DNA from: an uncultured Bacilli bacterium
Lineage (GTDB): Bacteria > Bacillota_I > Bacilli_A > RF39 > UBA660
NCBI GenBank assembly: GCA_947628375.1
Contig: CANQZQ010000002.1
Location: forward strand, 1-42,024
Length of the DNA: 42,024 nt
Direction: 5' to 3'
In this document: positions 1 to 33,556 of the stretch, piece by piece
Position numbering within the stretch: the stretch's first letter is position 1
How the letters are laid out: every line of letters starts with the position of its first letter
Translations under genes and position numbers: made by a program
Notes under the pieces: model-generated
Databases searched by the model: none
What the model was told of the DNA's origin: nothing
Seen by the model: the letters and a program-made list of their open reading frames with translations, nothing else

Positions 1-3000
1 GTAATATAGAAAGATATAAAAAAGAGAGTAAATATAACTATGAACCAGATAAAGAAGAAAAGGAAAAAGAATATGAAATAATAGAAGAAAGAATCAAACA
101 TTTAGAATGGTTACAAGAGATATTACCAAAAGAAGAACAAATAAAAGTAAGAGAAGATATAATATATATACTTAAAGATTTAGCAAGATTAGAAAAGAAT
201 ATAGAAGAGTATACATATCAAAACAAAAATAGCATAACAGAAGAAAGTAAAAATGAAGAAATAAATAATATATTAGAAATTCCTTTTGATATAGAACATA
301 AAGAAGAGATATTAAAGAAAATAGAAGAAATAGAAAGAAAATACCGCGCCTTTTATGAATACAAAGAACATCAAGAATATGGAGATATTGCCATAGATGA
401 AAGTGATTTAACAAATATCTATAATTTAAAGTTTGGTGCTCTAACAATAAGTAAAGATGGAATAGTAGATACATTTGTAAATGATGAAACAGATAAAATA
501 GAAATCGAATATTATCAAAATATCATATTCAGTATGATTCAAGATATAATAATGGGTAAAAATGAAGTATTTAATGAAATATTTAGTAAAGATTATACTA
601 AAGCAATTCTTTTAGTAAAGAAAATATTTATTGATAAAGGCTCAAATGTTTTAACTGATTTTGGCCTTCTCAATTTATTAATATCTTTTAATACAAAAGA
701 TGGATTATATAACTTTTTTACCAGTACTAAGTATCCGATGACAATTAATGACTGTCAAATTTTTGATTGGGATGAATATTTGTCCTTAGAAACTATTTAT
801 TTTATAAATAGGGCTTGTAATAAACATACTAATTTATATAATTATGTAGGGCCTAATAGTTATCATTACGACGATAACTATTATGATTTATATTTAATAT
901 ATCGTAAATTTTATAAACCTACTGAAGAAGATAAGTATTATTTACCTGAAGGTATAATTGAGATAAACGAACAACCTAGTAATAATTTAGGAAAGACCGA
1001 TTTAGAGCTTATAAATAAAATTCAAAGTGATTCTAAAGAAAAAGTAGTGTACCTTCCTAAAAGTTTAAAAACGGTTAACCGTATTGTAACGCTATTTGAG
1101 GATAATAGTCTAAAAGGTATTGTTTTAAATGATGGGTTAAGAGAGTTAGGCGCATATGCTTTTTTTAATCAACGATTTGTTGACATTACTTTTCCATCAT
1201 CTATTACTAGAATTTCAAAAGATGTTTTTAATTACCGCTATATTGAAAATGTAACTATTAAAATAAATAAAGATAATTACGATTTAATTAAATATGATAA
1301 TATTAAAAATATTTTTATAAATACTATTACTGGTATTTTAAATAATCATATAGAAGATAATCTAGGAAGTATATCGGTTGGTATAAATGCTGATGATCCT
1401 CCTATAGAAGAAGATGTTAGAAGTACTGTTAAAACTTTAACTATTTATTTTGAAGATTTAGATGATGACATCATAATTAATTTACACGATTTACAAATTC
1501 CTTTTTCTAAGTCTCGAAAAAAAGACTATTCTTCAATTTATCTTAATATATTATATAATCAAATAAAGTTAGCTTTAAAAAATAAAAGAAAAGAATTTAA
1601 TGAATTGCAACAAGTGTTACCAGAAAATGAAAGAATAAAAATACATAATGATTTAAAAGGCTTTCTTGTTGATTTAAATATATTAAATAGAAAATTGAAA
1701 GAATATATAGAATTAAATAAAGACGAAGTTCAAAAATTAAAAATTCATATCGAAGATTTTAATGTTTATAAAAATTCATATGAACCAACAATCAGTGGTT
1801 TACAAGGTACCTATGAAGTTGAATTAAAACCATATGAAGCAAAATTTAAATTATATAGATATTTTAATATGATTAACATAAATGAAATTAATATGTTTTA
1901 TTATGCTAAATATACTTATTTAACCGCATTTGATGTAGTAAAACCTTTTGTTAGTGAAAATACTATAAATGAAGAATTAGAATATTATAAAGAAATTGTT
2001 AATAATATAATTGAACATTATAGAAATTATAAACCAAATAATAACTCTGAAATAACTATTGGAAAAATAATTAATTTAAATTTAAAATTATTAGGTAATG
2101 CATCAAGTGAAGATATTCTTAAAGATTTTTATCTTTTAAATCTCTTTTTAGCTCTTGATAATCCTAAAAGATTATATAATTTTCTTCATTCATTTAATGA
2201 TGCATATATAACTGAATACTATAGAGATAATTCATTAATTAAATTTGAAGATACTATTCCATTAAGTACCGCCTTTTTAATAAAATACTACTCGTGTGAT
2301 TATGATAATTTTGATATCAATTTATATAAAGATAAAAAATATACTATTACTAAAGATTTTTTAGAATTATTTCATTTAATTTATTTAAATTATAGTTTAA
2401 AAATTGGTGAAACTAAAAAGTATAAAGAATATTTAAAACTACCTAATACCTTTTATTTATTTCCTGAAGGAATAAAAGAAATTAACTTAAAAAATAGAGA
2501 TGAAAATGACCCAATTATTAACAATATCCAAAATGATCTTTTTAATAAAGATGTCATTATGCCTCGTACGTTAAAAGTTTTAAAGGGTGATTTATTTAAT
2601 CATAAACCTAAAGGAAATGTTTACTTAAATGAAGGTTTAGAAACTCTTGATGTAATAAATTTAGCTTTTACTGATGATGAAGAAGTAACTATTCCTAGTT
2701 CTGTTAAAGAAATAATAGGTTTTGTACCAATTTATCTATCTGATTATTCTTTCAAAAAAATAGTATTTAATAATTTTAATTTTGAAAATAGAAAAGTTTT
2801 AGTTAATATCTTTGATATTTTTTTAAAAACAAATTTAAGATTTTTTATTTTTAACTTTACATTAATCTTTCATTACGATGATTTAAATGAAGATATAATT
2901 CCCAAACTTGATTTATCTTTATATGATTCTATTAAATTTGCGGGAAATAATAAGTATAGTAGTCAAGTTATTGAAGATATTGTTAATAATATTGAAAAAG

Positions 3001-3044
3001 AAGTGCAAGAAAAAAGAGGCAATAGTAAAAAACTAGAAAAATAG
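1..3044 (+). CDS. Large protein truncated at the 5' window edge: Glu/Lys-rich coiled-coil-like segment followed by two BspA-type leucine-rich-repeat-like modules
   Basis: I translated frame 3 from nt 3 to the listed ATG at 534 (NIERYKKESKYNYEPDKEEKEKEYEIIEERIKHLEWLQ...) and found no stop, so the 836-aa ORF in the track is a minimum. Two similar modules lie at roughly aa 135-265 and 655-790 of the listed ORF. Each starts (Y/F)YLxPEGIxEIN and carries LN(D/E)GLxxL... and (F/T)(I)PSS(I/V)xxI motifs reminiscent of BspA-like LRRs. Confidence 0.6.
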   Translation, partial: NIERYKKESKYNYEPDKEEKEKEYEIIEERIKHLEWLQEILPKEEQIKVREDIIYILKDLARLEKNIEEYTYQNKNSITEESKNEEINNILEIPFDIEHKEEILKKIEEIERKYRAFYEYKEHQEYGDIAIDESDLTNIYNLKFGALTISKDGIVDTFVNDETDKIEIEYYQNIIFSMIQDIIMGKNEVFNEIFSKDYTKAILLVKKIFIDKGSNVLTDFGLLNLLISFNTKDGLYNFFTSTKYPMTINDCQIFDWDEYLSLETIYFINRACNKHTNLYNYVGPNSYHYDDNYYDLYLIYRKFYKPTEEDKYYLPEGIIEINEQPSNNLGKTDLELINKIQSDSKEKVVYLPKSLKTVNRIVTLFEDNSLKGIVLNDGLRELGAYAFFNQRFVDITFPSSITRISKDVFNYRYIENVTIKINKDNYDLIKYDNIKNIFINTITGILNNHIEDNLGSISVGINADDPPIEEDVRSTVKTLTIYFEDLDDDIIINLHDLQIPFSKSRKKDYSSIYLNILYNQIKLALKNKRKEFNELQQVLPENERIKIHNDLKGFLVDLNILNRKLKEYIELNKDEVQKLKIHIEDFNVYKNSYEPTISGLQGTYEVELKPYEAKFKLYRYFNMININEINMFYYAKYTYLTAFDVVKPFVSENTINEELEYYKEIVNNIIEHYRNYKPNNNSEITIGKIINLNLKLLGNASSEDILKDFYLLNLFLALDNPKRLYNFLHSFNDAYITEYYRDNSLIKFEDTIPLSTAFLIKYYSCDYDNFDINLYKDKKYTITKDFLELFHLIYLNYSLKIGETKKYKEYLKLPNTFYLFPEGIKEINLKNRDENDPIINNIQNDLFNKDVIMPRTLKVLKGDLFNHKPKGNVYLNEGLETLDVINLAFTDDEEVTIPSSVKEIIGFVPIYLSDYSFKKIVFNNFNFENRKVLVNIFDIFLKTNLRFFIFNFTLIFHYDDLNEDIIPKLDLSLYDSIKFAGNNKYSSQVIEDIVNNIEKEVQEKRGNSKKLEK

Positions 3045-3813: not shown

Positions 3814-5160
3814 ATGGCAAGAGCAATGCCATCAAATAAAGAAGCAGAAATGAGTGTTTTGGGTGTTATTTTTCTTGATAATACTCTTGTTGATAGTATT
3901 TGCGAAGAAGTAAATGCTGAGATGTTTTTTGATGAAAGAAATAAATACTTATTTGAAGCAATATATGAACTTCATAATAATGGAATACCTATTAATGCTG
4001 GAATGGTTAAAGAAGAACTTGATAAAAAGAAAAGATTAAATTCAATTGGGGGATTATCATATATAAGTGAAGTTATTGATTCAGTTGAAACAAAAGCTAA
4101 TTTAGAATATTATATTGCTATTTTAAAAGAAAATTATACAAGAAGAAATTTAATAAATGCCGCAACAGAAATTGTTAATGCTTCATATGATGAGGATGAT
4201 TTAACTAATTTACTTGATAATGCCGAAAGAAATATTTTAAATGTTGTTAAAACGAGAAATATTAAAGATTTTGTACCAATTGGTGAAATATTAAGAAGAG
4301 CTCAAGCTAAATTAGAAGAACTTGCTAAAAATAAAAAATTAATTACTGGTTTAGAAACGGGATTTTATGATTTTGATAAAATTTCAACCGGATTTCAACC
4401 GGGTGAGCTTATTATTTTAGCAGCTCGTCCTGCTATGGGTAAAACTGCTCTTGCTTTAAATATGGCTACTTATGCAGCGACTAAAACAGAGAAAGCGATA
4501 GCAATTTTTAACTTAGAAATGCCCGCAGAACAACTTGTTAATAGAATTATAAGTGCGCAAGGGGGAATTGAAGGATATAAACTTCAAACGGGTAATATGA
4601 GCGAAAAAGATTGGAAACGTTATAATGAAGCTATGAATACTTTAGCTAAAACTAATCTTTATATTGAAGATAATACTGGTCTTACTTTAGGGGAAATTAA
4701 AGCTAAATGTCGAAGACTTGCTAATATGCCTAAGGGACTTGGTTTAGTAGTAATAGATTACTTACAACTTTTAACAACCGGTAATAAAAGAGTTGAGTCA
4801 AGACAAGTTGAGGTATCAGAAATATCAAGAAGTTTAAAAACTATGGCTCTTGAGTTAGGAGTACCAGTTCTTGCTTTAGCTCAACTTAATCGTAGTAGTG
4901 TAACTAATAAAAGAGAAGGTAATTTACCAATGCTTTCTGATTTAAGAGAATCTGGTTCTATTGAACAAGATGCGGATATGGTTTTGTTTATAAATCGTAA
5001 AGATTACCATGAAGCTAAAAAAGATCAAAAAGAAAAAATAGTACCGGCAGAATTAATTATTGCTAAGCACCGTAAAGGAAGCCTTGGAACAATTGATTTA
5101 TTATTTGAACTAAATATGAGTGCCTTTAGAAGTGTTGCACCTAATTTAGAGGAAGAGTGA
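3814..5160 (+). CDS. dnaB: Replicative DNA helicase (DnaB family; DnaC in Bacillus nomenclature)
   Basis: N-terminal NKEAEMSVLGVIFLDN, Walker A ARPAMGKTALALN, VVIDYLQLL, SRSLKTMALELGVPVLALAQLNR, and 448 aa length. Confidence 0.95.
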   Translation: MARAMPSNKEAEMSVLGVIFLDNTLVDSICEEVNAEMFFDERNKYLFEAIYELHNNGIPINAGMVKEELDKKKRLNSIGGLSYISEVIDSVETKANLEYYIAILKENYTRRNLINAATEIVNASYDEDDLTNLLDNAERNILNVVKTRNIKDFVPIGEILRRAQAKLEELAKNKKLITGLETGFYDFDKISTGFQPGELIILAARPAMGKTALALNMATYAATKTEKAIAIFNLEMPAEQLVNRIISAQGGIEGYKLQTGNMSEKDWKRYNEAMNTLAKTNLYIEDNTGLTLGEIKAKCRRLANMPKGLGLVVIDYLQLLTTGNKRVESRQVEVSEISRSLKTMALELGVPVLALAQLNRSSVTNKREGNLPMLSDLRESGSIEQDADMVLFINRKDYHEAKKDQKEKIVPAELIIAKHRKGSLGTIDLLFELNMSAFRSVAPNLEEE

Positions 5161-10786: not shown

Positions 10787-11017
10787 TTAATCTAATTTAC
10801 TTTTAGGATACATTTTTCTTTCATCAGTACGACATACTAAATAATCTAAACTTACATTATAAAAATCAGCTAAAATACATAATCTGTCTATTGGTATTAA
10901 TTGAATGCCTAATTCGTATTTTGAATATTGTTGTTGAGTTGTATGAAGAAGATTAGCTAATTCTTTTTGAGGGATATCTCGGTCTTCTCTAATTTCTTTT
11001 AGTCGCAATAATTTCAT
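10787..11017 (-). CDS. XRE-family HTH transcriptional regulator (76 aa), module A
   Basis: LKEIREDRDIPQKELANLLHTTQQQYSKYELG is an HTH_3 signature, and the C-terminal DYLVCRTDER tail is shared with the module B regulator. AAAGGA RBS. Divergent from 11147. Confidence 0.85.
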   Translation of the reverse strand: MKLLRLKEIREDRDIPQKELANLLHTTQQQYSKYELGIQLIPIDRLCILADFYNVSLDYLVCRTDERKMYPKSKLD

Positions 11018-11051
11018 TTTGAATCATTCCTTTAATTTATTTAATAATTTC

Positions 11052-11132
11052 ATACATCTAAAAAAATGTATTGACAATACATCTTATGAGGGGTAAAATT
11101 ATTTATATAATAATACACCTCTAAAGATGTAT
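11052..11132. promoter_or_regulatory. Operator-like ATACATCT repeats around the module A promoter
   Basis: ATACATCT occurs at 11052-11059 and 11077-11084, with its complement AGATGTAT at 11125-11132 and a variant ATACACCT at 11113-11120. ATACAT...ATGTAT (11052-11071) and ATACACCTCTAAAGATGTAT (11113-11132) are inverted repeats. Confidence 0.6.
11071..11099 (+). promoter_or_regulatory. Sigma-A-type promoter of the module A large gene
   Basis: TTGACA (11071-11076), a 17-nt spacer, then TAAAAT (11094-11099). On the other strand, TTGTCA (complement of 11072-11077), 17 nt, then TATGAA could drive the XRE gene. Confidence 0.6.
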
Positions 11133-11146
11133 AAAGGAGCATATCT

Positions 11147-12883
11147 ATGAAGAATAAAAAGAATACAATAATGTTAATAATGATAATAACAATATCTATG
11201 GTATTGTTAACCTGGAATAAGAGTTATTCATATAAAATGAATGATAATGAAGTAGAAGAAACAGAAGTAGAAAGAAAAGAATTTGGAATATATTTAGAAA
11301 AGAATCAAGGCTCAAGTAAACAAGATAATGATTATACTGAAACAAATACTTTTCCAACTCAAGGATATCTATTAAATACAACAAAAACAGAATGTTATGA
11401 ATACGGAAGTGATAATGTAATACAAAACGCAGTAGAACAAAGTTTAACAAATGGAGTAATAGATGGAACAATAATAGTAACAAGTCAAAAAAGTATGTAT
11501 TGTAAAATATATTTTGATAAAGATGATATATTACCAACAGTAACTGGATTTACAATAACAGGAAAAGATGTTAATGGAAGTGCTTTGAATAATGGTTATA
11601 CATATAATCCGGAAGTAACATATAACATAATATGGCAAGATAATGATGTAGCACAATATTGTATAAGTGAAGGAGCAAATTGTACAAATTGGCAACAAAT
11701 AGCAGGAACACAAGCAACAGGAGTAATGCCAGTATCACAAATCGATGGCGAGAAAACACTATATGTGTATTTAAAAGATAAAGCAAATAATACATCAGAA
11801 GTAAAAACAGAAAATATAATAGTAGATAGAACACCACCAGTAGTAAATACATTAACATTAACAGGAACAAAAGCGTCATGGTTTAATGTAAACCCTGGAT
11901 TCACTCACACAACAATGGTCAATTATAATGCAACTATTATAGAAGCAAATATAGAAGGATATTGTATACAAGAGGGAAGTAGTTGTAATACTTTTACACC
12001 GACATCATTATTAACTTTAAATGGGCAAGTACAAATATCTAACACAGAAACACTCCATACAGTGGTAATAAGTGTTCAAGATAAAGTCGGAAATATAGGA
12101 ATTATGACAGGAACTATTACATTAGATGCCACACCACCACAAGTAACAGTAACAGAAAAAAGTAAGACAGAGAACAGTATAACAGTTCATATAGAAGCAA
12201 CAGATACAAATGGAATACAAAGTAGGCATTGCCAATTACCAATAGAACCTTACACATGGATATTGGCAGATGCAAATGGAGATTGTACAGTAACAGGGTT
12301 ACAACCAGGGATAGCATATACGATACTTACTCATACCTATGATGGATCTGGCTTTGTCAATGAAGTAACGTCTTCATCGATATCCACAATGCAAGCTTGG
12401 ACATGTTCTAGTGGCAGTGTTCTAACACCTTCTAGTTTAGGTAGCGCGACCGGAGGATATGTTTGCGTTAAAGATGGGACAAGAGGGGACTCGTATGAAT
12501 GTGAGTGTAAATATTTAGACACGTGCAGTTCCGAGACGGTGTATCATAGTACCTACGATAAAGATTTAAGTTCGGCATTGGATGCTGAGAAGTCGTTGAC
12601 TGATAACGGGCTCGGTTCGCGAAGATGCTCTTGGTCCTCACAAAGTATGAAGGATTGTGGATCGTATTATAACTGCAGTGTCCACCGAAATGGCGATGCT
12701 GATATAATGTGCTATACAATTCAGCCTAATGGTTCGGGTTACACCTGCCGATCTGCGTACCATCCATATGAGGAAGTCTGCCGAACCTGTTATCACTATC
12801 AATGTGATGCTGACTGGCTGCAATTTTCTGGGAGTCTTGATAGTGCAAACTTAAAGTGCTATAAAGCCCCAACGAGGGGATAA
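11147..12883 (+). CDS. N-terminally anchored/secreted modular protein A: conserved head, 2 Ig-like repeats, FN3-like domain, Cys-rich C-terminal tip
   Basis: AAAGGAG RBS and hydrophobic N-terminus MKNKKNTIMLIMIITISMVLLTW. It is colinear with 25714-27909 to about aa 415. Repeats end in VDRTPP and LDATPP, each containing YCIxxGxxC. The FN3-like part contains SITVHIEATDTNGI...TVTGLQPGIAYTI. The last ~163 aa contain 14 Cys and have no counterpart in copy B. Confidence 0.8.
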   Translation: MKNKKNTIMLIMIITISMVLLTWNKSYSYKMNDNEVEETEVERKEFGIYLEKNQGSSKQDNDYTETNTFPTQGYLLNTTKTECYEYGSDNVIQNAVEQSLTNGVIDGTIIVTSQKSMYCKIYFDKDDILPTVTGFTITGKDVNGSALNNGYTYNPEVTYNIIWQDNDVAQYCISEGANCTNWQQIAGTQATGVMPVSQIDGEKTLYVYLKDKANNTSEVKTENIIVDRTPPVVNTLTLTGTKASWFNVNPGFTHTTMVNYNATIIEANIEGYCIQEGSSCNTFTPTSLLTLNGQVQISNTETLHTVVISVQDKVGNIGIMTGTITLDATPPQVTVTEKSKTENSITVHIEATDTNGIQSRHCQLPIEPYTWILADANGDCTVTGLQPGIAYTILTHTYDGSGFVNEVTSSSISTMQAWTCSSGSVLTPSSLGSATGGYVCVKDGTRGDSYECECKYLDTCSSETVYHSTYDKDLSSALDAEKSLTDNGLGSRRCSWSSQSMKDCGSYYNCSVHRNGDADIMCYTIQPNGSGYTCRSAYHPYEEVCRTCYHYQCDADWLQFSGSLDSANLKCYKAPTRG

Positions 12884-12890
12884 AGAGTTG

Positions 12891-12961
12891 ATCGAGAAGG
12901 AAAACTCGTTAAAACCTTCATAGACTTAATCCTTGGAAAGAGAGCAATCTCTTTCTTTTTT
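12891..12961 (+). repeat. Conserved 3' element of module A, including an intrinsic terminator (12936-12961)
   Basis: It differs from 27917-27986 at only 3 substitutions by my alignment. Hairpin GAAAGAGA-gcaa-TCTCTTTC plus a T-run. It begins 7 nt after the stop codon. Confidence 0.8.
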
Positions 12962-13032
12962 AATTTAACTAAAACATAAGTTTTTTTCTTGATTAATAAA
13001 TTAATCTATGATAAGCTATAGCTAGTTAGCAA

Positions 13033-13228
13033 GGAAGTTATTAAAAGAGATATTATATTATTACTAAAAGAGAGTTAATGGGTTGGTGTAAATTAATGGG
13101 TAATATAATAAATAGTATGGATAATGGAGCTAAATCAGTGAAGACTGTTATAACTAAAAGTGTATGATTAAGTTCATAAATAAAGGTGGTACCGCATTTA
13201 AAGTGTCCTTTTGTTTATGAATTTTTTT
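13033..13228 (+). promoter_or_regulatory. T-box riboswitch leader, probable Met (AUG) specifier, controlling HAD-dut-metG
   Basis: AAGGTGGTACCGC T-box core at 13183-13195. AGAGA/AGAGAG elements at 13044-13074 and a GGTGTAA distal-loop motif at 13085-13091. AUG at 13117-13119 followed by a purine in the putative specifier loop. Terminator TTCATAAAtAAAGG...CCTTTTgTTTATGAA plus T7 at 13173-13228 overlaps the T-box sequence. metG lies downstream. Confidence 0.75.
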
Positions 13229-13244
13229 ATATAATGGAGGTATC

Positions 13245-13865
13245 ATGAAAGCAATTATTTTTGATGTTGATAATACTTTAATTAAATGGAGTGATGATTA
13301 TTTATGGGCTTTAAAAAAAGTATTAAATGATATGGGATATGATAGTGAAAAATATTATAAATTAATTAATGAGGCTTTAATCATGCATAAATATAAATAC
13401 GATACTATAACTAAAGAAAATATGTTAGATATAATTAAAGAATATAGTAATTTAGATTTAAATGAAGAATTTTTAAAAAAATTTATAAATGAACAAAAAC
13501 AATTATATTATACTGATGAAGATATTACTAAAACAATAGAATATTTATATAAGAAATATGATTTATATGTTATAAGTGATTGGTTTACTGAAACTCAAGA
13601 AGGACGTTTAGAAAATATGGGAATATTAAAATATTTTAAAAAAGTATATGGAGCTGATATTAATTATTGTAAAAAAAATTTAAAGGCTTTTGATGTTATT
13701 TTAGATAAATATCCAAGTAATGAATGTGTATTTATTGGTGATAATTATGAATTAGATGTTTTAAATCCTTCATTAGTAGGTATGAATGTAATATGGGTTA
13801 CTAATAATAAAAGTACTAAATATCAAACAATTAATAATATTAAAGAATTAATGAATATATTATAA
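13245..13865 (+). CDS. HAD-superfamily hydrolase
   Basis: FDVDNTL (DxDxT) motif I, a late GDNYELD motif, 206 aa, and a GGAGG RBS. Confidence 0.75.
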   Translation: MKAIIFDVDNTLIKWSDDYLWALKKVLNDMGYDSEKYYKLINEALIMHKYKYDTITKENMLDIIKEYSNLDLNEEFLKKFINEQKQLYYTDEDITKTIEYLYKKYDLYVISDWFTETQEGRLENMGILKYFKKVYGADINYCKKNLKAFDVILDKYPSNECVFIGDNYELDVLNPSLVGMNVIWVTNNKSTKYQTINNIKELMNIL

Positions 13866-13877
13866 GGAGTAGATAAA

Positions 13878-14369
13878 ATGGATAGATATTTTGAAAAAAT
13901 AAGTTTTGAGCAATTTCAAAAAGAAATTAAAGATGATAAAGAATTATATGATGAATATATATTACCTAAAAGAAAAACTAAATATAGTGCTGGATATGAT
14001 TTTTTTGCTATTGAAGATTTTGAAATACAACCTGGAGAAAGAAAAAAAATACCTACAGGATATAGAGCTAAGTTTTTAAATGATGAAGTCTTAATGCTTT
14101 TTGTAAGAAGCAGTATGGGTTTTAAATATAATGTTAGAATGACTAATCAAGTTGGTATTATTGATGCTGATTATTTTGATAATAAAGAAACTTTTGGTCA
14201 TATGTATATTTCTTTACAAAATGAAGGAAGTAAAGTATTTAAAGTAAAAAAAGGAGAATCTTATGCTCAAGGAATATTTTTAAAATATTTAACTTGTGGT
14301 GAAGAAGTTGATAATATAAGAAATGGCTGGACTGGTAGTCCACTTAGAAAAGAGGATAATAATGAATAA
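13878..14369 (+). CDS. dut: dUTP diphosphatase (dUTPase family)
   Basis: YSAGYDFFA, VGIIDADYF and the C-terminal GWTGSP are dUTPase-type motifs; 163 aa. Confidence 0.75.
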   Translation: MDRYFEKISFEQFQKEIKDDKELYDEYILPKRKTKYSAGYDFFAIEDFEIQPGERKKIPTGYRAKFLNDEVLMLFVRSSMGFKYNVRMTNQVGIIDADYFDNKETFGHMYISLQNEGSKVFKVKKGESYAQGIFLKYLTCGEEVDNIRNGWTGSPLRKEDNNE

Positions 14370-16668: not shown

Positions 16669-17067
16669 ATGAAAATAAAAAAAGATATTGTTAACACTGT
16701 AATAATATTAACGGCCATAAGTATTACTTTAACATTTATAAAAAAATTAGATAAAAAAACAGAAATTACTAACCCTTGGGAAATAAAGAAAGAAAATTCT
16801 ATAGAAAATGAACAGCCGTTAAATAAAGAAATTTATACCGAAGATGAATTTATAGAATTATTAAATACAAATGATGCCAAAATAATTTATGAAAAAGATA
16901 AAGATAGATATTTTGTTAATACCCATGTCCCAATTTTAGATAATTTCATCTCTCCTGAAGGTTTTCTATTATATCAAGAATATTTATATGTTCAAGAAGA
17001 ACCAAATAAAGGCTTTTATGCTGTTAATAATTATTTATCAATACGTCCTAATAGTAAAGGAAGATAA
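16669..17067 (+). CDS. Hypothetical membrane-anchored protein (132 aa)
   Basis: GGAG RBS and one N-terminal TM helix; no recognisable motif. Confidence 0.5.
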   Translation: MKIKKDIVNTVIILTAISITLTFIKKLDKKTEITNPWEIKKENSIENEQPLNKEIYTEDEFIELLNTNDAKIIYEKDKDRYFVNTHVPILDNFISPEGFLLYQEYLYVQEEPNKGFYAVNNYLSIRPNSKGR

Positions 17068-17106
17068 ATGTTGAAAAACTCTGAATTTTCAACATTTTCT
17101 TTTTTT
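17068..17106 (+). terminator. Terminator hairpin, member 1 of the ATGTTGAAAA/TTTTCAACAT palindrome family
   Basis: ATGTTGAAAA (17068-17077), loop actctgaa, TTTTCAACAT (17086-17095), then a T-rich run. Confidence 0.75.
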
Positions 17107-22486: not shown

Positions 22487-24133
22487 GTGATGGAAAATAT
22501 TTTAATTACATATAATGGTGAAAAGAAAGAATTTCCCAAATATACTACTTACTATGATATTAGTAAAGCCTTTAATATGTCAAAAAATATTTTAGGAGTT
22601 AAAGTTAATAATGAAGTATTTTCTCTTACTGATGCAACTTCTATATCAGAGGAAATTAATTTTATTGATTTAAATGATATAATAGGTAATAAAATTTATA
22701 AAAGTGGTTTAGAATTTTTATTTGAAGTAGCCCTTAAAGAAGCTTATCCCAATTTAGATATAACATACCAACATAGTGTTCCTAAAGGCTTTTTAGGGGA
22801 AATAGTTGGTGATAAAATTATTACTCAAGATGATTTAGTGAAGATTAAAGGAATAATGGCTAGAATTATATCAGAAGATAAGCCTTTTAAAAAATATACT
22901 ATTAGTAAAAAAGACGCTATTAAATTTTATCAAAGTAAAAATCAAAAAGAAAAGTGTGAAAACATTCAAAATATCTCTGACGTTGCTGTCACTTTATATG
23001 AATTAAATGGTATACATAACTATTTTTATAATGATATGCCTTATAGTACAGGAAGCATAACTAAATACGATATTGTTTATTTAGGAAGAAACAGATTAGT
23101 TTTTTTAATTCCTAACTGGCGTTGTAATGGTGAACTTCCTGAATATGTTCATTATGATAATATTATTAATTCATTTTTAGTAGGTAAGAATTGGCTAGAA
23201 ACTTTAAATATGCAGTATGCTACTTCGATTAATAATACGATAAGTAATGGCAAGATAAAAGATTTCATTAAATCTTGTGAATTAATTTTTAATTTAAATA
23301 TGTCAGATGTTACTAAAGAAATAACTAATAATAGAAATATTAAATTTGTTTTAATTGCGGGTCCATCTTCTAGTGGTAAAACAACAACTGCCAAAAGATT
23401 AGCATCTTATTTAGAAGCCTTTGGTTTTGATCCTTTAAGATTATCAATTGATGATTTTTTCCTAGAAAGAGAAGATACCCCCAAAAATGAAAAGGGCGAA
23501 TATGACTTTGAATGTTTAACAGCAATTGATTTAAATTTATTCAATACTACCTTAAAGAAATTACTTGATGGTGAAGAAGTAAGTCTTCCGACATTTAACT
23601 TTGTTACTGGTAAAAAAGAATATAATGATAATTTAGTTAAAATGAGGGATAATAGTATTATCTTAATTGAAGGCTTACATGCTTTAAATGATGAATTATT
23701 ACCAAGTATCGATAAAAAATATAAATACAAAATTTATTTAAGCCCTTTTATTCCTCTTAATATAGATAGACATAATTATATATCCACAACTGATTTAAGA
23801 TTATTAAGAAGAATAGTTAGAGATAATAGAACAAGAAATTATGATGTTAATAACACTATCAAAGTTTGGCAAAATGTTAGAAATGGTGAAGAAAAATACA
23901 TTTTCCCATACATTCATCAAGCGGATAAAATAATTAATACCGCTCTTACTTATGAAATAGGAGTTATCAAAGTTTATGTTGAACCTTTACTTAGAAGTAT
24001 TAGAGTAAATAGTGATTATTATGAAGAAGCCAAAAGATTATTAAATTTTTTAAAAATTTTTTATACAATACCAAGCGAGTATGTACCAGAAGATTCAATA
24101 CTTAGAGAGTTTATAGGAGGATGCAATGATTAA
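22487..24133 (+). CDS. Uridine-kinase-family P-loop kinase with N-terminal TGS/ThrRS-like domains
   Basis: GPSSSGKTTTAKRL Walker A followed by a PRK/Udk-like region (IILIEGLHALND). The N-terminal ~230 aa resembles the TGS plus second additional domain arrangement. ATG at 22490 is an alternative start. Confidence 0.6.
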   Translation: MMENILITYNGEKKEFPKYTTYYDISKAFNMSKNILGVKVNNEVFSLTDATSISEEINFIDLNDIIGNKIYKSGLEFLFEVALKEAYPNLDITYQHSVPKGFLGEIVGDKIITQDDLVKIKGIMARIISEDKPFKKYTISKKDAIKFYQSKNQKEKCENIQNISDVAVTLYELNGIHNYFYNDMPYSTGSITKYDIVYLGRNRLVFLIPNWRCNGELPEYVHYDNIINSFLVGKNWLETLNMQYATSINNTISNGKIKDFIKSCELIFNLNMSDVTKEITNNRNIKFVLIAGPSSSGKTTTAKRLASYLEAFGFDPLRLSIDDFFLEREDTPKNEKGEYDFECLTAIDLNLFNTTLKKLLDGEEVSLPTFNFVTGKKEYNDNLVKMRDNSIILIEGLHALNDELLPSIDKKYKYKIYLSPFIPLNIDRHNYISTTDLRLLRRIVRDNRTRNYDVNNTIKVWQNVRNGEEKYIFPYIHQADKIINTALTYEIGVIKVYVEPLLRSIRVNSDYYEEAKRLLNFLKIFYTIPSEYVPEDSILREFIGGCND

Positions 24134-25139
24134 AGTAGCGATTAATGGTTTTGGAAGAATAGGTAGAATTGCCTTTAGAGAAATGATTACAACAAGTGAT
24201 TTTGATGTTGTAGCAATTAATGATTTATCAAATGCTGAAGAATTAGCTCATTTACTTAAATATGATACAGTTCATCGTTCATTTCATGAGCAAGAGATTT
24301 CATATGATGGTAATGATATTGTAATTGCAGGTAAAAAAAGAATTAGAGTATTTAGTGAAAAAGATCCAGTTAATTTACCTTGGCGAGATCTAAATGTTGA
24401 TTTAGTTTTAGAGTGTACAGGGGTATTTACTAAATATGAAGATGCAATGAAACATATCACCGCAGGAGCTAAAAAAGTTTTAATATCAGCTCCAGGCAAA
24501 GGTGATATGAAGACAATTGTCTATGGTGTCAATGATAATATTTTAGATGGAACTGAACAAATAGTATCATCAGCTAGTTGTACGACTAATTGTTTAGCTC
24601 CAGTTTTAAAAGTTATAAATGATAATTATGGTATTAACAAAGGATTTATGAGTACTGTTCATGCTTTTACTAATGATCAAGAAACTTTAGATATAGCTCA
24701 TAAAAAAGGTATATATGCAAGACGTGGAAGAGCCGCTAGTCAAAATATTATTCCCGCTTCAACTGGGGCTGCCTCAGCAATTGGTTTAGTTATACCAGAA
24801 TTAAATGGTAAATTAGATGGACTTGCTTATAGAGTACCAGTTTGTGATGGCTCATTAATTGATGTTACTTTAGAGTTAAAATCATCACCATCAATTGATG
24901 ATATAAATAATTTATTTATGAATAATCAAAATGAAACATTAAAATTTACTAAAGATCCAATCGTTTCTAGTGATGTTATTGGTAAAAGATGTGGTTCTCT
25001 AGTAGACGGATTACTTACTAATATGGTTGAAGTAAATAATACAAGATTATATAAAATAGTATCTTGGTATGATAATGAACTTGGTTATACTTGTCAAATG
25101 CTAAGATGTGCTAAAGCAATGTTTAAAAATACTCTTTAA
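24126..25139 (+). CDS. gap: Type I glyceraldehyde-3-phosphate dehydrogenase
   Basis: MIKVAINGFGRIGR, active site SASCTTNCLAP, WYDNELGY. AGGAGGA RBS. Overlaps the upstream gene by 8 nt. Confidence 0.95.
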   Translation: MIKVAINGFGRIGRIAFREMITTSDFDVVAINDLSNAEELAHLLKYDTVHRSFHEQEISYDGNDIVIAGKKRIRVFSEKDPVNLPWRDLNVDLVLECTGVFTKYEDAMKHITAGAKKVLISAPGKGDMKTIVYGVNDNILDGTEQIVSSASCTTNCLAPVLKVINDNYGINKGFMSTVHAFTNDQETLDIAHKKGIYARRGRAASQNIIPASTGAASAIGLVIPELNGKLDGLAYRVPVCDGSLIDVTLELKSSPSIDDINNLFMNNQNETLKFTKDPIVSSDVIGKRCGSLVDGLLTNMVEVNNTRLYKIVSWYDNELGYTCQMLRCAKAMFKNTL

Positions 25140-25152
25140 TGAGTATTTTTTT
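25125..25152. terminator. Bidirectional terminator between gap and the module B regulator
   Basis: AAAAATACTC-tttaat-GAGTATTTTT 10-bp stem with A/T runs on both sides. Confidence 0.65.
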
Positions 25153-25600
25153 AACGTTTATAAGGAGTTCTTTCATCAGTTAAATATAATAAATAATCAA
25201 TTGGTACATTGTAATATTTAGCTAAAATAATTAGCTTTGTAATAGGAATATCGCAATAACTTGTTTCATATTGTGAATAACCATTTTGACTCATATTTAA
25301 TATTTTAGCAATATCTATTTGTAATAAATCTCTATCTTCTCTAACATCTTTTAATCTATTCATGTTATTAGCAGTTTTAATAATATGTGATGGATTATAA
25401 GGTGTTTTTATATCTGTTAAATTTAAAATATAATCGATATTGACATCAAAAATTATCGCTAATTTTCTAAGTTTAGTTGTCGAAATATTTGATAGTTCTG
25501 TCTCATATTGCGAGTATCCATTTTGACTCATATTTAATTCTTTAGCAATATCTTTTTGATATAAATTTTTTTCTTTTCTAAGTTCCTTTAGTCTATTCAT
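25151..25600 (-). CDS. XRE-family regulator with two tandem HTH domains (149 aa), module B
   Basis: Two ~70-79 aa repeats: MNRLKELRKEKNLYQKDIAKELNMSQNGYSQYET...DYILNLTD and MNRLKDVREDRDLLQIDIAKILNMSQNGYSQYET...DYLLYLTDERTPY. Divergent from 25714. Confidence 0.85.
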   Translation of the reverse strand: MNRLKELRKEKNLYQKDIAKELNMSQNGYSQYETELSNISTTKLRKLAIIFDVNIDYILNLTDIKTPYNPSHIIKTANNMNRLKDVREDRDLLQIDIAKILNMSQNGYSQYETSYCDIPITKLIILAKYYNVPIDYLLYLTDERTPYKR

Positions 25601-25622
25601 AATCTCACATCTAAAATTTAAC

Positions 25623-25698
25623 GTATCGTAAATAAAGATATTGACTTATATCGCTATTAACGATATACTTAATTTAATAATATCGTAAATAACGATAT
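25623..25698. promoter_or_regulatory. Three ATATCG/CGATAT-type operator-like repeats around the module B promoter
   Basis: TATCGTAAATAAaGATA (25624-25640), TATATCG-ctattaa-CGATATA (25647-25667, inside the spacer and -10), and ATATCGT-aaata-ACGATAT (25680-25698). Confidence 0.65.
25641..25669 (+). promoter_or_regulatory. Sigma-A-type promoter of the module B large gene
   Basis: TTGACT (25641-25646), a 17-nt spacer, then TATACT (25664-25669). Confidence 0.6.
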
Positions 25699-25713
25699 AA
25701 GGAGAATCTATCT

Positions 25714-27909
25714 ATGAAGAATAAAAAGAATACAATAATGTTAATAATGGTAATATCAATATCTATGGTATTGTTAACATGGAATAAGAGTTATTCATAT
25801 AAAATGGATAATAATGAGATAGAAGAAAAAGAAGTAGAAAGAAAAGAATTTGGGATATATTATCAAACTTCTGGAAATTCATATGAAGAAAAAGATACTT
25901 TCCCAACTCAAGGATATCTGTTAAATACAATAAAAACAGAATGTCATGAATATGGAAGTGATAATGTAATACAAAATGCAGTAACACAAAGTTTAATAAA
26001 TGGAGTAATAGATGGAAGTATAATAGTACAAAGTACAAAAAGTATGTATTGTAAAATATATTTTGATAAAGATGAAACACCAACAGTAAGTTCATTTAAT
26101 ATAACAGGAAAAGATAAAAATGGTGGTGTATTACAAAATGGATATACATATAATACAGGAGTATATGCAATAAGTTGGAATGATAGAGATGTAGCACAAT
26201 ATTGCTTAAGTGATAATAGTAGTACATGTACAAATTGGGTAGAAATAGGAGATAAATCAGTTAAAACAATAACAATAGAGAATAGTACATATACAAATAC
26301 AGAAGGCCCAAAAACAATATATGCATATATAAAAGATAAAGCAAATAATATATCAAATACAATAACAAATTCGACTAAACAAATAGCAGTAGATCAAACG
26401 CCACCTGTAATAAATGCATTAACATTAACGGGAACACAAGCAGCTGGAATGACATTACAAAGTGGATATACTCATACACAAACAGTAAATTATAATGCAA
26501 CTATAACAGAAACAAATATGGAAGGATATTGTATAGTAGATGGAAGTAGTTGTAGTAATTACAATACATCACCAATAACATCATTAAGTAGTACAATAGC
26601 AATAGGAACAACACAAGGAAGCCATCCAATAACATTAAGTGTAAAAGATAAAGCAGGAAATATAGGCAGTAAAACTCAATCGATAAGATTAGACACACAA
26701 AATCCAACAATAACATTGAGTAATGGAACAGCAACAGAAACAAGTATAACAGTAACAGTAAATGCAAGTGATTCTAATGGAATAGCTAGTGTAACATGTA
26801 CAGCAGTAGGAAATAATGAAGCCAAAACTGGAACATATAATAGTACTGCTAAGACATGTACATTTAGTGGTTTAAAAGATGGAACACAATATACAATAAT
26901 TGGAGTAGCAACGGACGAATCAGGAAGAAAAGGTACAAGTACACCAATAGAAGTTACTACAATTAAGCTTTTAACAGATGGTCAAAAAAAGGCTCAAGAA
27001 GTGTTAGGTGTGGTACCAAAAGGGATAAGTGAAAAGTTACTTGGAGACATGTACAGATTTGTAGGTACGAAAGATACTGTAGATAACTGGATATGTTTTG
27101 GTTATAGTAATGTAGATACGGATTGTAAATCACCATCGAGTGATTTTATGTATCGAATAATAGGGATTACTGAAGATGGACAATTAAAACTCATAAAAAA
27201 TTTAGCATATGAAAAGTATGAATGGAATTGTGAAGATTGTGGGAGAAGTCTTCATGGAGCAGCTCTATATGAACTATGGAGTAGCTCAAGTGTCCGATAT
27301 AGGGTGCAATCCGATTTTCCAACAGATCATTTAAGTAATTTATCACCAGGCAGTTCAAAACAATGGAGTGAATTAGTAGAAACAAAAGACTGGTTATATG
27401 GAGATTTTATAGCATATAATAACAATCCAATACAGAATCTTACTGCTAATCAAGTGTATGAAGCCGAGTCTGGAAAAGTAGATGTGTATATTGAAAGAAG
27501 TAGCGAATATGATCTTGTTGGTAAATGGGAGAAAACAATTACGGGTAAATTTAGCTTAATGTATGTTCATGATTTTCTATACTCATATAGCTCTGATAAT
27601 AGTCTTGATTCTTCTAATACTAGATGCACTTACGCGGGTGACTGTAAAGATAGTTGGTTATTTATTGGCAATTCTTTGCCAGAAACAGATAATAACCAAC
27701 AAAGAGATGAATGGACCATGACTTCCAGAGGTTGGGATTATGCTGGGTGGTATCAAGCAAATAGAATCGGCAGCGGGGCCATCCTTGATAGCGCCGCCAC
27801 CAATACGATTTGGTATCGGCCCGTCTTTTATATCTCCCCAACAAAGGTTAAGATAAATAAGGGCAGTGGAGTGACTTCTTCACCTTTTATAGTTGTTCCA
27901 GTAATCTAG
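25714..27909 (+). CDS. N-terminally anchored/secreted modular protein B: same head and Ig/FN3 stalk as 11147-12883, unrelated ~315-aa aromatic-rich C-terminal tip
   Basis: It differs from protein A at 6 of the first 49 residues. Repeats end in VDQTPP and LDTQNP, each with YC(L/I)...C. The FN3-like part contains SITVTVNASDSNGI...FSGLKDGTQYTI. From about aa 418 the tip carries YRFVGTKDTVDNWICFG, FMYRIIGITEDGQLKLI, EWTMTSRG and WYRPVFYI motifs. Confidence 0.8.
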   Translation: MKNKKNTIMLIMVISISMVLLTWNKSYSYKMDNNEIEEKEVERKEFGIYYQTSGNSYEEKDTFPTQGYLLNTIKTECHEYGSDNVIQNAVTQSLINGVIDGSIIVQSTKSMYCKIYFDKDETPTVSSFNITGKDKNGGVLQNGYTYNTGVYAISWNDRDVAQYCLSDNSSTCTNWVEIGDKSVKTITIENSTYTNTEGPKTIYAYIKDKANNISNTITNSTKQIAVDQTPPVINALTLTGTQAAGMTLQSGYTHTQTVNYNATITETNMEGYCIVDGSSCSNYNTSPITSLSSTIAIGTTQGSHPITLSVKDKAGNIGSKTQSIRLDTQNPTITLSNGTATETSITVTVNASDSNGIASVTCTAVGNNEAKTGTYNSTAKTCTFSGLKDGTQYTIIGVATDESGRKGTSTPIEVTTIKLLTDGQKKAQEVLGVVPKGISEKLLGDMYRFVGTKDTVDNWICFGYSNVDTDCKSPSSDFMYRIIGITEDGQLKLIKNLAYEKYEWNCEDCGRSLHGAALYELWSSSSVRYRVQSDFPTDHLSNLSPGSSKQWSELVETKDWLYGDFIAYNNNPIQNLTANQVYEAESGKVDVYIERSSEYDLVGKWEKTITGKFSLMYVHDFLYSYSSDNSLDSSNTRCTYAGDCKDSWLFIGNSLPETDNNQQRDEWTMTSRGWDYAGWYQANRIGSGAILDSAATNTIWYRPVFYISPTKVKINKGSGVTSSPFIVVPVI

Positions 27910-27916
27910 TGTTCAA

Positions 27917-27986
27917 ATCGAGAAGGAAAACTCGTAAAAACCTTCATAGACTTAATCCTTGGGAAGAGAGCAATCTCTTCCTTTTT
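27917..27986 (+). repeat. Conserved 3' element of module B, including an intrinsic terminator (27962-27986)
   Basis: Near-identical to 12891-12961. Hairpin GGAAGAGA-gcaa-TCTCTTCC plus T5. It begins 7 nt after the stop codon. Confidence 0.8.
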
Positions 27987-28014
27987 ATGTTGAAAACTAT
28001 TAAGTTTTCAACAT
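27987..28014 (+). repeat. Palindrome, member 2 of the ATGTTGAAAA/TTTTCAACAT family
   Basis: ATGTTGAAAAC-tattaa-GTTTTCAACAT, a perfect 11-bp inverted repeat. Confidence 0.7.
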
Positions 28015-28065
28015 AATATTTATTTTATTAAACATTATTGGTAAAATTATAATAGAAAGAGTGAT

Positions 28066-29211: not shown

Positions 29212-29252
29212 AATGCAAATTTTATTAATATTTATATTAAAAATGCATTCTA

Positions 29253-29281
29253 TTGCAAATTTATAAATTATGTAATATAAT
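29253..29281 (+). promoter_or_regulatory. Sigma-A-type promoter upstream of the AAA ATPase gene
   Basis: TTGCAA (29253-29258), a 17-nt spacer, then TATAAT (29276-29281). Confidence 0.55.
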
Positions 29282-29299
29282 TATTTTGGAGGAAGCAAA

Positions 29300-30499: not shown

Positions 30500-30522
30500 T
30501 AAGTTATCAACATTATTTTTTT
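30486..30522 (+). terminator. Terminator hairpin, member 3 of the ATGTTGA.../...TCAACAT family
   Basis: ATGTTGA (30486-30492) pairs with TCAACAT (30507-30513), followed by T7. The left arm lies inside the last codons of the ATPase gene. Confidence 0.55.
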
Positions 30523-30523
30523 C

Positions 30524-30551
30524 TTGACAAAATAATGTTTCTGATTATAAT
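30524..30551 (+). promoter_or_regulatory. Sigma-A-type promoter of the lipoprotein gene
   Basis: TTGACA (30524-30529), a 16-nt spacer, then TATAAT (30546-30551). Confidence 0.6.
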
Positions 30552-30586
30552 AAAGGCTAGTTTTTTTAAGAAAGGGGATTTTTTGA

Positions 30587-32497: not shown

Positions 32498-32505
32498 ATT
32501 TTAGA

Positions 32506-32534
32506 AAGAGCTGTTCCAAAGCAGTTCTTTTTTA
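32506..32534 (+). terminator. Rho-independent terminator
   Basis: AAGAGCTG-ttccaaag-CAGTTCTT (one G-U pair) followed by a T-run. Confidence 0.65.
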
Positions 32535-32552
32535 TTTTATAAAAAATTTAAT

Positions 32553-32614
32553 AAATTTTTCTAAAAAAGAAGGAAATGAAAGAAAAAAAGCTAATATATA
32601 TAGTGAAGGGAGGA
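32553..32614 (+). repeat. ~60-nt purine-rich leader element, copy 2
   Basis: See 3062-3121. Here the SD/ATG is followed by only a 7-codon ORF. Confidence 0.6.
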
Positions 32615-32715
32615 AATATAAATGTCGAAAAAAAGTTTCTTTTGATATCATTTGTCAAAAACATTGCTTTTCTAAAAATAATTATTAATATATAGACTTT
32701 AAAGGAGGAATAGCA

Positions 32716-33525: not shown

Positions 33526-33556
33526 AATAGATAAAAAATATAGATAATCGTCATAA

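Follow-up and report, generated by a model that had tools for sequence, protein, structure and literature searches.

What kind of system is formed by a small regulator gene and a large divergently transcribed gene that occur together twice in one short piece of a gut bacterial genome, and how might its copies be controlled? The piece in question is a 42,024-nt contig stretch (the window; G+C 25%) from an uncultured Bacilli bacterium. Its two copies, modules A and B, each hold a minus-strand XRE-type regulator gene, a divergent control region, a plus-strand gene for a large protein with a hydrophobic N-terminus, and a conserved element 3′ of the stop codon (Table 1). The initial annotation saw in this a duplicated two-gene system. 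We recovered both modules as it described them, with their open reading frames (ORFs), control regions, and 3′ elements. A and B belong, however, to a multigene family, for which a few genomes yield 56 loci: a dispersed, lineage-specific surface-protein family in a very AT-rich uncultured Firmicute lineage of the rabbit gut. The architecture of the family, its linkage to regulators, the fold of the module B tip, and the existence of the 3′ element are the established parts of the picture. We favor, with moderate confidence, the overall reading that this is a family of anchored, stalked, lectin-like surface proteins held under two layers of control, with gene conversion maintaining the shared parts.

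A dispersed family of stalked surface proteins

The large proteins of modules A and B are 54% identical over aa 1-420 (BLASTP, E = 3e-141), and no alignment extends beyond. This agrees with the earlier description of colinearity up to about aa 415 followed by unrelated tips, and a recount gave the same 6 differences in the first 49 residues and 3 in the first 93 nt. Codons 1-30 are 97% identical in nucleotides; the value drops steadily to 36% near codon 410, and the share of identical codons among identical residues declines in parallel. Since identity and identical-codon use drop together, the gradient reflects unequal divergence along the gene and not protein constraint alone. The A-B homology begins about 7 nt 5′ of the ATG and picks up again 8 nt past each stop codon. 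There, 12891-12960 and 27917-27986 are 95.7% identical over 70 nt (3 differences; no copy is expected by chance), which bears out the conserved ~70-nt 3′ flank.

Nearly all of the 56 loci, which came from a scan of one genome per species, belong to four genomes from rabbit gut that carry the label "uncultured Bacilli bacterium". About 25 loci are in one of these, and each of the three others has 6-10; many of the loci sit at contig ends, as is expected of repeated genes. Below, L-numbers denote family loci in related genomes and P-numbers denote related proteins. A search with the head and stalk returned only 20 proteins among 5.8 billion. Six further proteins (P0002-P0007) have exactly the N-terminal sequence of the window's proteins, and their contigs match none of these genomes; their source is probably the genome of the window itself, whose membership would then be at least eight. 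The 89-aa head by itself was found in 41 clusters in an exhaustive search of 1.84 billion, always at residues ~40-125 and directly behind the anchor. A stalkless architecture of anchor, head, and tip is common among the relatives of the module B tip. One such stalkless gene, L081, occupies the site of module A, with the order lemA, murJ-like gene, XRE gene, and family gene kept. The distant tip B relatives P0024, P0035, and P0045 have neither a regulator nor a 3′ element, which indicates that the regulatory design is restricted to the window's lineage. The window also encodes Spo0A, YabG, a SpoVB/MurJ-like protein, a Mur ligase, and an M23/LysM protein. The host is thus a walled spore-former, and these genes rule out a wall-less, Mollicute-like host.

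Two loci depart from the usual layout. At L082 (3864-6239, in Lapin-016 bin2, a more distant genome), a familyless 242-aa gene stands between the divergent XRE gene and the family gene, and this order implies that a regulated unit can comprise two genes. At L045 (3950-5230; 6404-6447), a gene with a Cys-rich tip stops early in a basic tail and the 3′ element lies ~1.2 kb downstream, which suggests a gene split by an insertion, possibly an IS element.

The encoded proteins begin with an N-terminal hydrophobic segment and a novel head of ~85 aa; a single or double Ig-like repeat and an FN3-like domain form the stalk, and the tip comes last. The hydrophobic segment would serve as an uncleaved membrane anchor. 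The N-termini (MKNKKNTIMLIMIITISMVLLTWNKSYSYK and its variants) contain no cysteine, so they have no lipobox and do not look like lipoproteins. The Ig-like repeats and the FN3-like domain lie where the initial annotation placed them, but all of their Pfam scores are below cut-off (Big_13, 22.1 and 16 bits against 27; fn3, 16.9 against 25; Big_7 likewise below). We therefore use the names Ig-like and FN3-like only as labels with which position and repeat pattern are consistent. Weak fibronectin matches in the PDB cover aa 325-414. Four tip B relatives (P0021, P0022, P0035, and P0063) have another N-terminus, which ends in A-Y-A-Y-F or T-Y-A-F-F and resembles SipW-dependent signal peptides of the TasA/camelysin type. 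These alternative N-termini indicate that the lectin-like tip is paired with at least two export or anchoring solutions.

The tips fall into just two classes, and most genomes have both. The picture of open-ended, exchangeable tip cassettes does not survive this count. Class II comprises module B and most paralogs. It carries the motifs GDMYRFVG, NWICFGY, and MYRIIGI and ends in VRPVFYL followed by a G-x-GT-x-x-x-PFII-like motif. Pfam DUF6273 (PF19789) matches 7 of 30 paralogous class II tips (best E = 2.1e-6), and a precomputed PF19789 annotation is present on some distant homologs. The AlphaFold2 model of tip B is confident (pLDDT 90.5, pTM 0.91). Its top Foldseek match is the cryo-EM structure 9qa6 of the Thomasclavelia ramosa IgA peptidase (E = 2.9e-6, probability 1.00), with a query-normalised TM-score of 0.48 over 320 columns at 15% sequence identity. 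This is the sole strong PDB match; weak C-type lectin domains come next. The model thus identifies tip B, with confidence, as a predicted enlarged C-type-lectin-like domain of the DUF6273 type. The N-terminal domain of the T. ramosa enzyme is itself annotated as DUF6273 (PMC12402451); it is an enlarged C-type-lectin-like domain that is not needed for catalysis (PMC12237041). The variable tips of phage "tentaclins" are likewise DUF6273 lectin-like domains carried on Ig-type stalks, and there they are the ligand-binding targets of diversity-generating retroelements (PMC10743442).

Class I comprises module A and about 15 others. Its complete tips are 124-259 aa long (163 aa in module A by the initial annotation) with 6-10% Cys. 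They start with A-Y-x-C-x-x-G, continue with short repeats of the form Y-x-C...Y-x-S...C-x3-C, and end with Y-Y-C-x-S-G-W-x-x-Y-S-G-S-G...C-Y-K-A-A-T-K-G. Pfam, PDB profile, and word-indexed homolog searches found no relative of class I or of tip A, and the AlphaFold2 model of tip A, built on a 4-sequence alignment, is of low confidence (pLDDT 38.6). Tips A and B are unrelated at the profile level (hhalign probability 0.2%). By sequence profile, then, the two tips are non-homologous, as first proposed, and not alignable members of one family. An exchange of tips had also been proposed for module A. Here the tip class tracks the orthologous locus, and a Cys-rich tip is found at the murJ site in three species.

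Seven loci (L010, L015, L020, L021, L025, L035, and L038) have lectin-type tips with an extra Cys- and Gly-rich C-terminal extension after PFI(V/I). Their 3′ element lies 45-140 nt past the stop codon, not 0-17 nt.

Divergent regulators and copy-specific operator-like palindromes

Both regulators score well above the Pfam HTH_3 cut-off of 23 bits (A, 53 bits; B, 88.6 bits with two domains), and the two proteins are 50% identical. The B regulator arose by internal tandem duplication, since 25158-25363 and 25395-25600 share 73% nucleotide identity, and is in effect a single-chain dimer. Tandem-XRE regulators are also found at L001, L010, L027, L035, L039, L043, and L045. We tallied the regulators for the 42 family genes with upstream DNA. 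A divergent small DNA-binding gene is present at 34 of them. At 32 it belongs to the XRE superfamily, lies 20-160 nt away, and is single-domain, tandem, or of a 66-, 70-, 82-, 93-, or 95-aa subtype (HTH_3/HTH_26); at two, an Arc-like ribbon-helix-helix gene is upstream.

The control regions share a common plan without a common sequence: a TTGAC -35 box, a -10 box, and a copy-specific palindrome that occurs twice. In the XRE-type copies examined, one palindrome site lies at or abuts the -35 box, and the other lies between the -10 box and the ribosome-binding site. In the window the regions measure 129 and 113 nt, close to the ~115-130 nt first given, and each has its own inverted repeats. The palindrome ATACATCT-N4-AGATGTAT belongs to A, L008, and L046; it occurs twice at L008, and L046 has one perfect and one degenerate copy. 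B and L001 share ATATCGT-N5-ACGATAT. Other loci carry TAAAACA-N3-TGTTTTA (L032), ATACTCAT-N3-ATGAGTAT (L006), ATATAAC-N6-GTTATAT (L007), and TACCTAT-N6-ATAGGTA (L037 and L040). Compared with shuffled sequences, the palindrome counts are exceptional in five modules (empirical p <= 0.003, with no or almost no shuffle equal). They give p = 0.01-0.06 in seven more, A and B among them, and p >= 0.08 in the remaining 11 regions. Promoter-like matches are no commoner than in shuffles of this 25% GC DNA; the support for the promoters is positional, with TTGAC at about the same place in most paralogs.

Regulator and operator are conserved jointly at orthologous sites, A with L008 and L046 and B with L001. 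The regulator gene of A shares 85% and 87% nucleotide identity with those of the murJ-adjacent L008 and L046, respectively, and 67% with that of B; the regulator gene of B shares 84% with that of L001. The private repressor and operator that the initial annotation gave to each copy in the window extend to more than 30 modules in related genomes. This anatomy matches a dedicated repressor per gene, by which the surface-protein gene would be bound and repressed.

The 5′ coding part shows a different pattern. Over nt 1-150 of the coding sequence, A is 93% identical to B, 86% to L008, and 70% to L046, and L008 is 93% identical to the paralogs of its own genome. Across 22 genes, within-genome paralogs are more alike than between-genome genes along the head and most of the stalk. 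The 3′ element likewise exists in genome-specific versions common to all paralogs of a genome. Together, these identities, profiles, and element versions indicate old modules whose coding 5′ part and 3′ element have been homogenised in each genome. By this comparison, gene conversion keeps the head, stalk, initiation region, and 3′ element uniform, and the regulators, operators, and tips stay individual. The gap-adjacent site holds a tandem-XRE module with a lectin-like tip in the window and at L027, and L036 retains only a gene fragment. L032, in genome bin20, has a single-XRE module with a Cys-rich tip at the same site. Because L032 differs there, whole modules are replaceable at a site.

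A 3′ element complementary to the translation start

A profile search (nhmmer) of 444 kb of related DNA found 49 copies of the 3′ element. All are on the gene strand downstream of a family gene or fragment, and none lies elsewhere in the same 444 kb. Silent, promoter-less tip cassettes flanked by the element, which the exchange idea had envisaged, are therefore absent from this set. In the four closest genomes nearly every family copy is followed by the element, in keeping with the linkage first suspected. It usually starts 0-17 nt past the stop codon, and in five cases the stop codon is a TAA within it. A metagenome scan with a degenerate pattern did not find the element outside the lineage. 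Its 23 matches are chance, with no hairpin and no significant nhmmer score.

The element consists of a hairpin, a conserved stretch, and a terminator. The 4-bp hairpin stem is CGAG/CTCG; genome bin28 has TGAC/GTCA instead, L034 has CAAG/CTTG, and L081 has CGTC/GACG (a fourth variant, read by eye). It is 100% paired, with double-sided changes in three of the four pairs, and 0 of 500 shuffles were as good. The conserved stretch of ~25 nt is predicted to be fully unpaired in three of five folded copies; in the window's two copies it is partly paired, with CCUUC at its 5′ end pairing with the hairpin-loop region. Within the ~45-nt hairpin-plus-seed part, 25 alignment columns are invariant over five genomes. 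The adjacent terminator stems diverge; they vary freely, with compensatory changes. No Rfam family matches the window at curated cut-offs. A permissive Rfam search of 12880-13300 returned only a T-box and one weak small RNA (sRNA) match at 13175-13236, outside the element.

Read as its reverse complement, the element resembles an initiation region in its spacing: a ribosome-binding-like motif, 8 nt, and ATG. We rejected an antisense small ORF as the explanation; the ORFs are just 13-20 codons long, and the species differ by a 1-nt indel that changes the reading frame directly after the ATG. We also set aside, as a candidate part of the module, an AT-rich palindrome, ATGTTGAAAAC-N4-7-GTTTTCAACAT. 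It follows the terminator of B (27985-28016) and many modules elsewhere, and it overlaps a -35-like TTGAAA upstream of pgk. It also occurs at ~17067-17095 and ~30485-30512 in the window and at ~2680-2710 in L001, and its presence in such unrelated intergenic spots marks it as a genome-wide intergenic palindrome.

The conserved stretch is complementary to the translation start of the family genes. In module B, CUUCAUAGA is predicted to pair with UCUAUGAAG over the start codon and UCCUU with AAGGA, which gives 15 bp and -17.3 kcal/mol. Predicted duplexes between 39 family initiation regions and their cognate elements average -13.4 kcal/mol, compared with -9.06 kcal/mol (standard deviation 2.5) for 151 non-family initiation regions with a ribosome-binding motif from the same loci. 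The two sets differ strongly (Mann-Whitney p = 1.4e-11), and 1.3% of the controls reach the family median. Against shuffled elements, the mean z is -2.47 for the family and -4.8 for the window's two genes. The initiation regions of 33 regulators average -7.3 kcal/mol and are not targeted. They pair worse than the controls, so we rejected the idea that the element acts on the repressor mRNA in a positive feedback. A preference for the cognate partner appeared only in the window lineage, in a noisy run with several mis-called start codons. In one paralog that has an rpmF-like gene and no regulator upstream (L030), the initiation region at 3940-3975 is a near-perfect complement of the element, with 18 contiguous predicted pairs (-23.3 kcal/mol).

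A precedent for such an arrangement is the icaR mRNA of Staphylococcus aureus, in which a 3′ untranslated motif complementary to the mRNA's own ribosome-binding region is predicted to block translation initiation (PMC3868564). By prediction, the present element is a 3′ motif of the same type, complementary to the ribosome-binding region of its own mRNA. It is better read as a putative transcribed mask of the start region, joined to a terminator, than as a recombination flank.

In the scheme that we favor, we infer repression, RNA pairing, and ligand binding from these features. In the first layer, the anatomy suggests that each small divergent repressor would bind its copy-specific palindrome, and each copy could then be silenced and released on its own. 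In the second layer, the complementarity suggests that the 3′ stretch of the mRNA would pair with the family ribosome-binding site and start codon and so mask translation initiation. The masking could take place within one mRNA, as in icaR, or between members, should a small RNA build up from the 3′ end. The outcome might be a regulated, combinatorial display of differing binding tips toward host or gut ligands.

Several observations count against this scheme. In bin28, the most divergent genome, the complementarity is not significant (p = 0.35), and it is weak at L081, where 9.6% of shuffles are equally good. Cross-species covariation between element and initiation region is not demonstrable. 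The hairpin has only 4 bp, its covariation comes from two or three independent lineages, and a palindromic DNA site would give the same pattern. Exact palindromes are not significant in the control regions of the 70-aa HTH type, of one of the two Arc-linked modules tested, and of several tandem-XRE modules. At eight of the 42 genes, the upstream DNA has no recognisable regulator or only an unclassified small ORF. The tip of module B itself matches no Pfam model at E <= 1. For tip A, which has neither a structure nor relatives, a binding role is assumed from its position.

The element could instead be functionless: A and B would be ordinary diverged paralogs, and the element a terminator-proximal sequence carried along by gene conversion. 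We consider this fairly unlikely. Any sequence with both an anti-ribosome-binding-site motif and CAT pairs somewhat with a start region, and some controls indeed reach -13 to -17 kcal/mol. Spurious duplexes are frequent in AU-rich RNAs (with long 5′ windows, z stays between -0.7 and -3), and the missing effect in bin28 fits this explanation as well. It does not, however, account for the invariant columns across five genomes while terminator stems and tips diverge, nor for the absence of the element from other genes in the 444 kb. The split between family and control duplexes also speaks against it, with the regulator initiation regions as a negative control. Finally, the initiation-like reverse complement of the element is non-coding, as the frame-shifting indel shows.

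Alternatively, the element and the conserved 5′ end might act as DNA, either as homology anchors or recombination signals that serve gene conversion or cassette exchange among paralogs, or as TCTATGAAG/CTTCATAGA inverted repeats that flip the coding region in a phase switch. Such a role appears unlikely to us, even though several findings suit it. Each genome has its own uniform version of the head, the stalk, and the 3′ element; the A-B homology has its borders just outside the ATG and the stop codon; the gap-adjacent site differs in module type between three genomes and bin20; a 9+5 bp inverted repeat flanks the gene; and the hairpin covariation would be mimicked by a palindromic DNA site. 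A check for phase switching found, on the other side, all ~45 assembled copies in one orientation relative to the regulator and no recombinase gene adjoining either window module. The only transposase-like gene of the window (PDDEXK_2, 32716-33525) is ~5 kb from module B. Moreover, stop codon and terminator enclose the element exactly; its layout is that of a small RNA; its conservation across species is not explained by gene conversion within genomes; and the 49 elements checked include no silent cassette.

We regard as very unlikely that the element is a site for an RNA-binding protein (for example of the CsrA type, with GGA in a loop) or an RNase-protective hairpin that sets mRNA stability. 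The loop AAGGAAAA does show GGA, a second GGA is often found at the terminator base, and the hairpin has compensatory changes, but the loop GGA is lost in L034a (AAGAAAAA) and L081 (AACGAA), and the conserved unpaired stretch CATAGACTTAA would be left unexplained. Nor did a CsrA gene come to light, although no search was aimed at one.

The initial annotation compared the modules with cassette-exchange systems such as polymorphic toxins and phage receptor-binding proteins. That comparison can hardly hold: a conserved N-terminal part does precede a non-homologous tip, and DUF6273 domains do occur in phage receptor-binding proteins (PMC10743442), but there are only two tip classes, no toxin or immunity domains, no relatives on viral contigs, and a terminator with housekeeping genes downstream. 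The module proteins match no toxin family, and no orphan tips carry the 3′ element. The genes that follow are for a HAD hydrolase after module A and pgk after module B, and the neighbors as a whole are housekeeping genes without phage context. PADLOC gave no defence family match for either large protein. In PHROGs, protein A matched one unnamed family, protein B matched none, and no phage structural family appeared. IMG/VR viral contigs contained no family relatives and no 3′ elements. Nor is there a sign of a diversity-generating retroelement, with no tip repeat in a self-comparison of the window and no reverse transcriptase among its scanned ORFs.

Window features, known parallels, and meaning

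Table 1. Features of modules A and B and their positions in the window
Feature	Positions	Strand	Basis or remark
A: regulator gene, XRE/HTH_3 single-domain, 76 aa, putative private repressor	10787-11017	-	ORF and Pfam HTH_3
A: control region, 129 nt	11018-11146	+	sequence, promoter scan, repeat scan
A: O1, ATACATCT-N4-AAATGTAT	11052-11071	+	abuts -35
A: -35, TTGACA	11071-11076	+	promoter scan
A: -10, TAAAAT	11094-11099	+	17-nt spacer from -35
A: O2, ATACACCT-N4-AGATGTAT	11113-11132	+	repeat scan
A: ribosome-binding site, AAGGAG	11134-11139	+	
A: surface-protein gene, 578 aa	11147-12883	+	ORF
A: putative anchor, aa 1-25	11147-11221	+	
A: head, aa 40-128	11264-11530	+	approximate limits
A: Ig-like repeats, aa 130-328, then FN3-like, aa 329-414		+	approximate limits
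A: Cys-rich tip, aa 415-578	12389-12880	+	
A: 3′ element	12891-12961	+	A-B comparison, profile search, folding, duplex prediction
A: hairpin of 3′ element, CGAG-AAGGAAAA-CTCG	12893-12908	+	
A: single-stranded stretch of 3′ element	12909-12934	+	
A: CTTCATAGA	12916-12924	+	complementary to TCTATGAAG at 11144-11152
A: TCCTT	12930-12934	+	complementary to AAGGA of ribosome-binding site
A: terminator hairpin and T-run	12935-12961	+	
B: regulator gene, two tandem XRE/HTH_3 domains, 149 aa	25151-25600	-	ORF and Pfam
B: control region, 113 nt	25601-25713	+	
B: operator-like repeat, upstream-most	25623-25641	+	
B: -35, TTGACT	25641-25646	+	
B: operator-like repeat, TATATCG-N7-CGATATA	25647-25667	+	between -35 and -10
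B: -10, TATACT	25664-25669	+	17-nt spacer from -35
B: operator-like repeat, ATATCGT-N5-ACGATAT	25680-25698	+	
B: ribosome-binding site, AAGGAG	25699-25704	+	
B: surface-protein gene, 731 aa; anchor, head, two Ig-like, FN3-like as in A to ~aa 415	25714-27909	+	
B: tip, aa 416-731, enlarged C-type-lectin-like DUF6273-type domain	26959-27906	+	predicted structure
B: 3′ element	27917-27986	+	
B: hairpin of 3′ element	27919-27934	+	
B: single-stranded stretch of 3′ element	27935-27960	+	
B: CTTCATAGA	27942-27950	+	complementary to 25711-25719
B: TCCTT	27956-27960	+	
B: terminator	27961-27986	+	compensatory G-C change relative to A

Downstream of module A, a T-box leader (13023-13213, plus strand) precedes the HAD-hydrolase, dUTPase, and metG genes. 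It scores 59.8 bits (E = 1.1e-12), below the Rfam cut-off of 93, and is hence absent from a default scan; a conserved GGTGGTACCGC box lies near 13186. The listed metG ORF begins within the end of the dUTPase gene (14323-14369). Since the MetRS profile match begins at residue 14, the true metG start is probably a later ATG. Module B lies between gap and pgk in a glycolytic row (gap...pgk...pgm; 24126-36039) that is interrupted again between pgk and the phosphoglycerate mutase gene, by an AAA_14/DUF4143 ATPase gene, a familyless 636-aa ORF, the PDDEXK_2 transposase-like gene, and spo0A. The window also encodes an 836-aa putative surface protein with BspA-type leucine-rich repeats (534-3044, plus strand), which is likewise large but unrelated to the family.

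Several known systems share parts of this layout. The vsp, vlp, and vsa families of Mycoplasma are variable surface lipoproteins, switched by promoter repeats or site-specific inversion. Like the present family, they have many paralogs, dispersed or clustered, a conserved 5′ end with an N-terminal anchor, a variable distal part, constant parts that evolve in concert, and a presumably changeable surface. Unlike them, the present genes have no lipobox and no switch repeats or invertase that we could see, and they do have their own repressors and operators and a shared 3′ element. In Neisseria, pilE and the pilS loci carry a 3′ Sma/Cla repeat, and the pilS loci are silent, promoter-less donors to one expression site. 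Both cases have a conserved sequence of ~65-70 bp 3′ of every locus and a conserved 5′ coding part flanking a variable region, but each gene of the present family is complete and comes with a promoter, a regulator, and a terminator of its own. In Bacillus subtilis, SinR is a small XRE-type repressor encoded beside the matrix operon tapA-sipW-tasA, which it represses; as a single switch it acts globally, it carries an oligomerisation domain, and SinI antagonizes it. There too, an XRE-type repressor gene adjoins genes for extracellular proteins. The present lineage differs in having dozens of putative repressors that consist of the HTH only, each with one gene and one operator sequence.

The closest precedent for the second layer is icaR, with its 3′ motif complementary to its own ribosome-binding region and the block of initiation predicted from it. 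icaR, however, stands alone as a regulator gene, and its 3′ untranslated region is long (PMC3868564), whereas the present ~45-nt element is common to ~25 paralogs in a genome, covers the start codon in its predicted pairing, and lies between a hairpin and a terminator. Tip B has, by Foldseek with the predicted model, the same enlarged lectin-like fold as the T. ramosa IgA peptidase, but it is C-terminal rather than N-terminal, shares only 15% identity, and is joined to no peptidase domain. Like a tentaclin tip, it is borne by Ig/FN3-type domains, as part of a surface protein that belongs to a gut Firmicute or to its phage (PMC10743442). The modules in the window differ from tentaclins in having no retroelement, template repeat, or phage context. 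Our literature search turned up no description of such a combined system.

Bacterial surface variation usually proceeds through DNA rearrangement, slipped-strand repeats, or a few global regulators. The family would add to these a natural library, in which ~25 complete lectin-like surface-protein genes in a small genome come with apparently orthogonal repressor-operator pairs. The family newly defines a head domain and a Cys-rich tip, and it puts the DUF6273 lectin-like domain, which a gut IgA peptidase also carries, in a clear setting: the outer end of stalked proteins on the surface of gut Firmicutes. One extension of the scheme, which we hold to be improbable, is that the shared 3′ end acts as a small RNA that silences all sibling mRNAs, so that a copy escaping its own repressor shuts off the others. 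If true, this would be an RNA-based mutual-exclusion circuit above an orthogonal repressor-operator bank, with one or a few adhesins made at once, and it would account for the within-genome uniformity of the initiation region and the 3′ element. Should the two-layer model itself be true, it would provide a second, family-wide case of a bacterial 3′ untranslated region controlling translation initiation, and a new regulatory design for selecting among paralogous adhesins.

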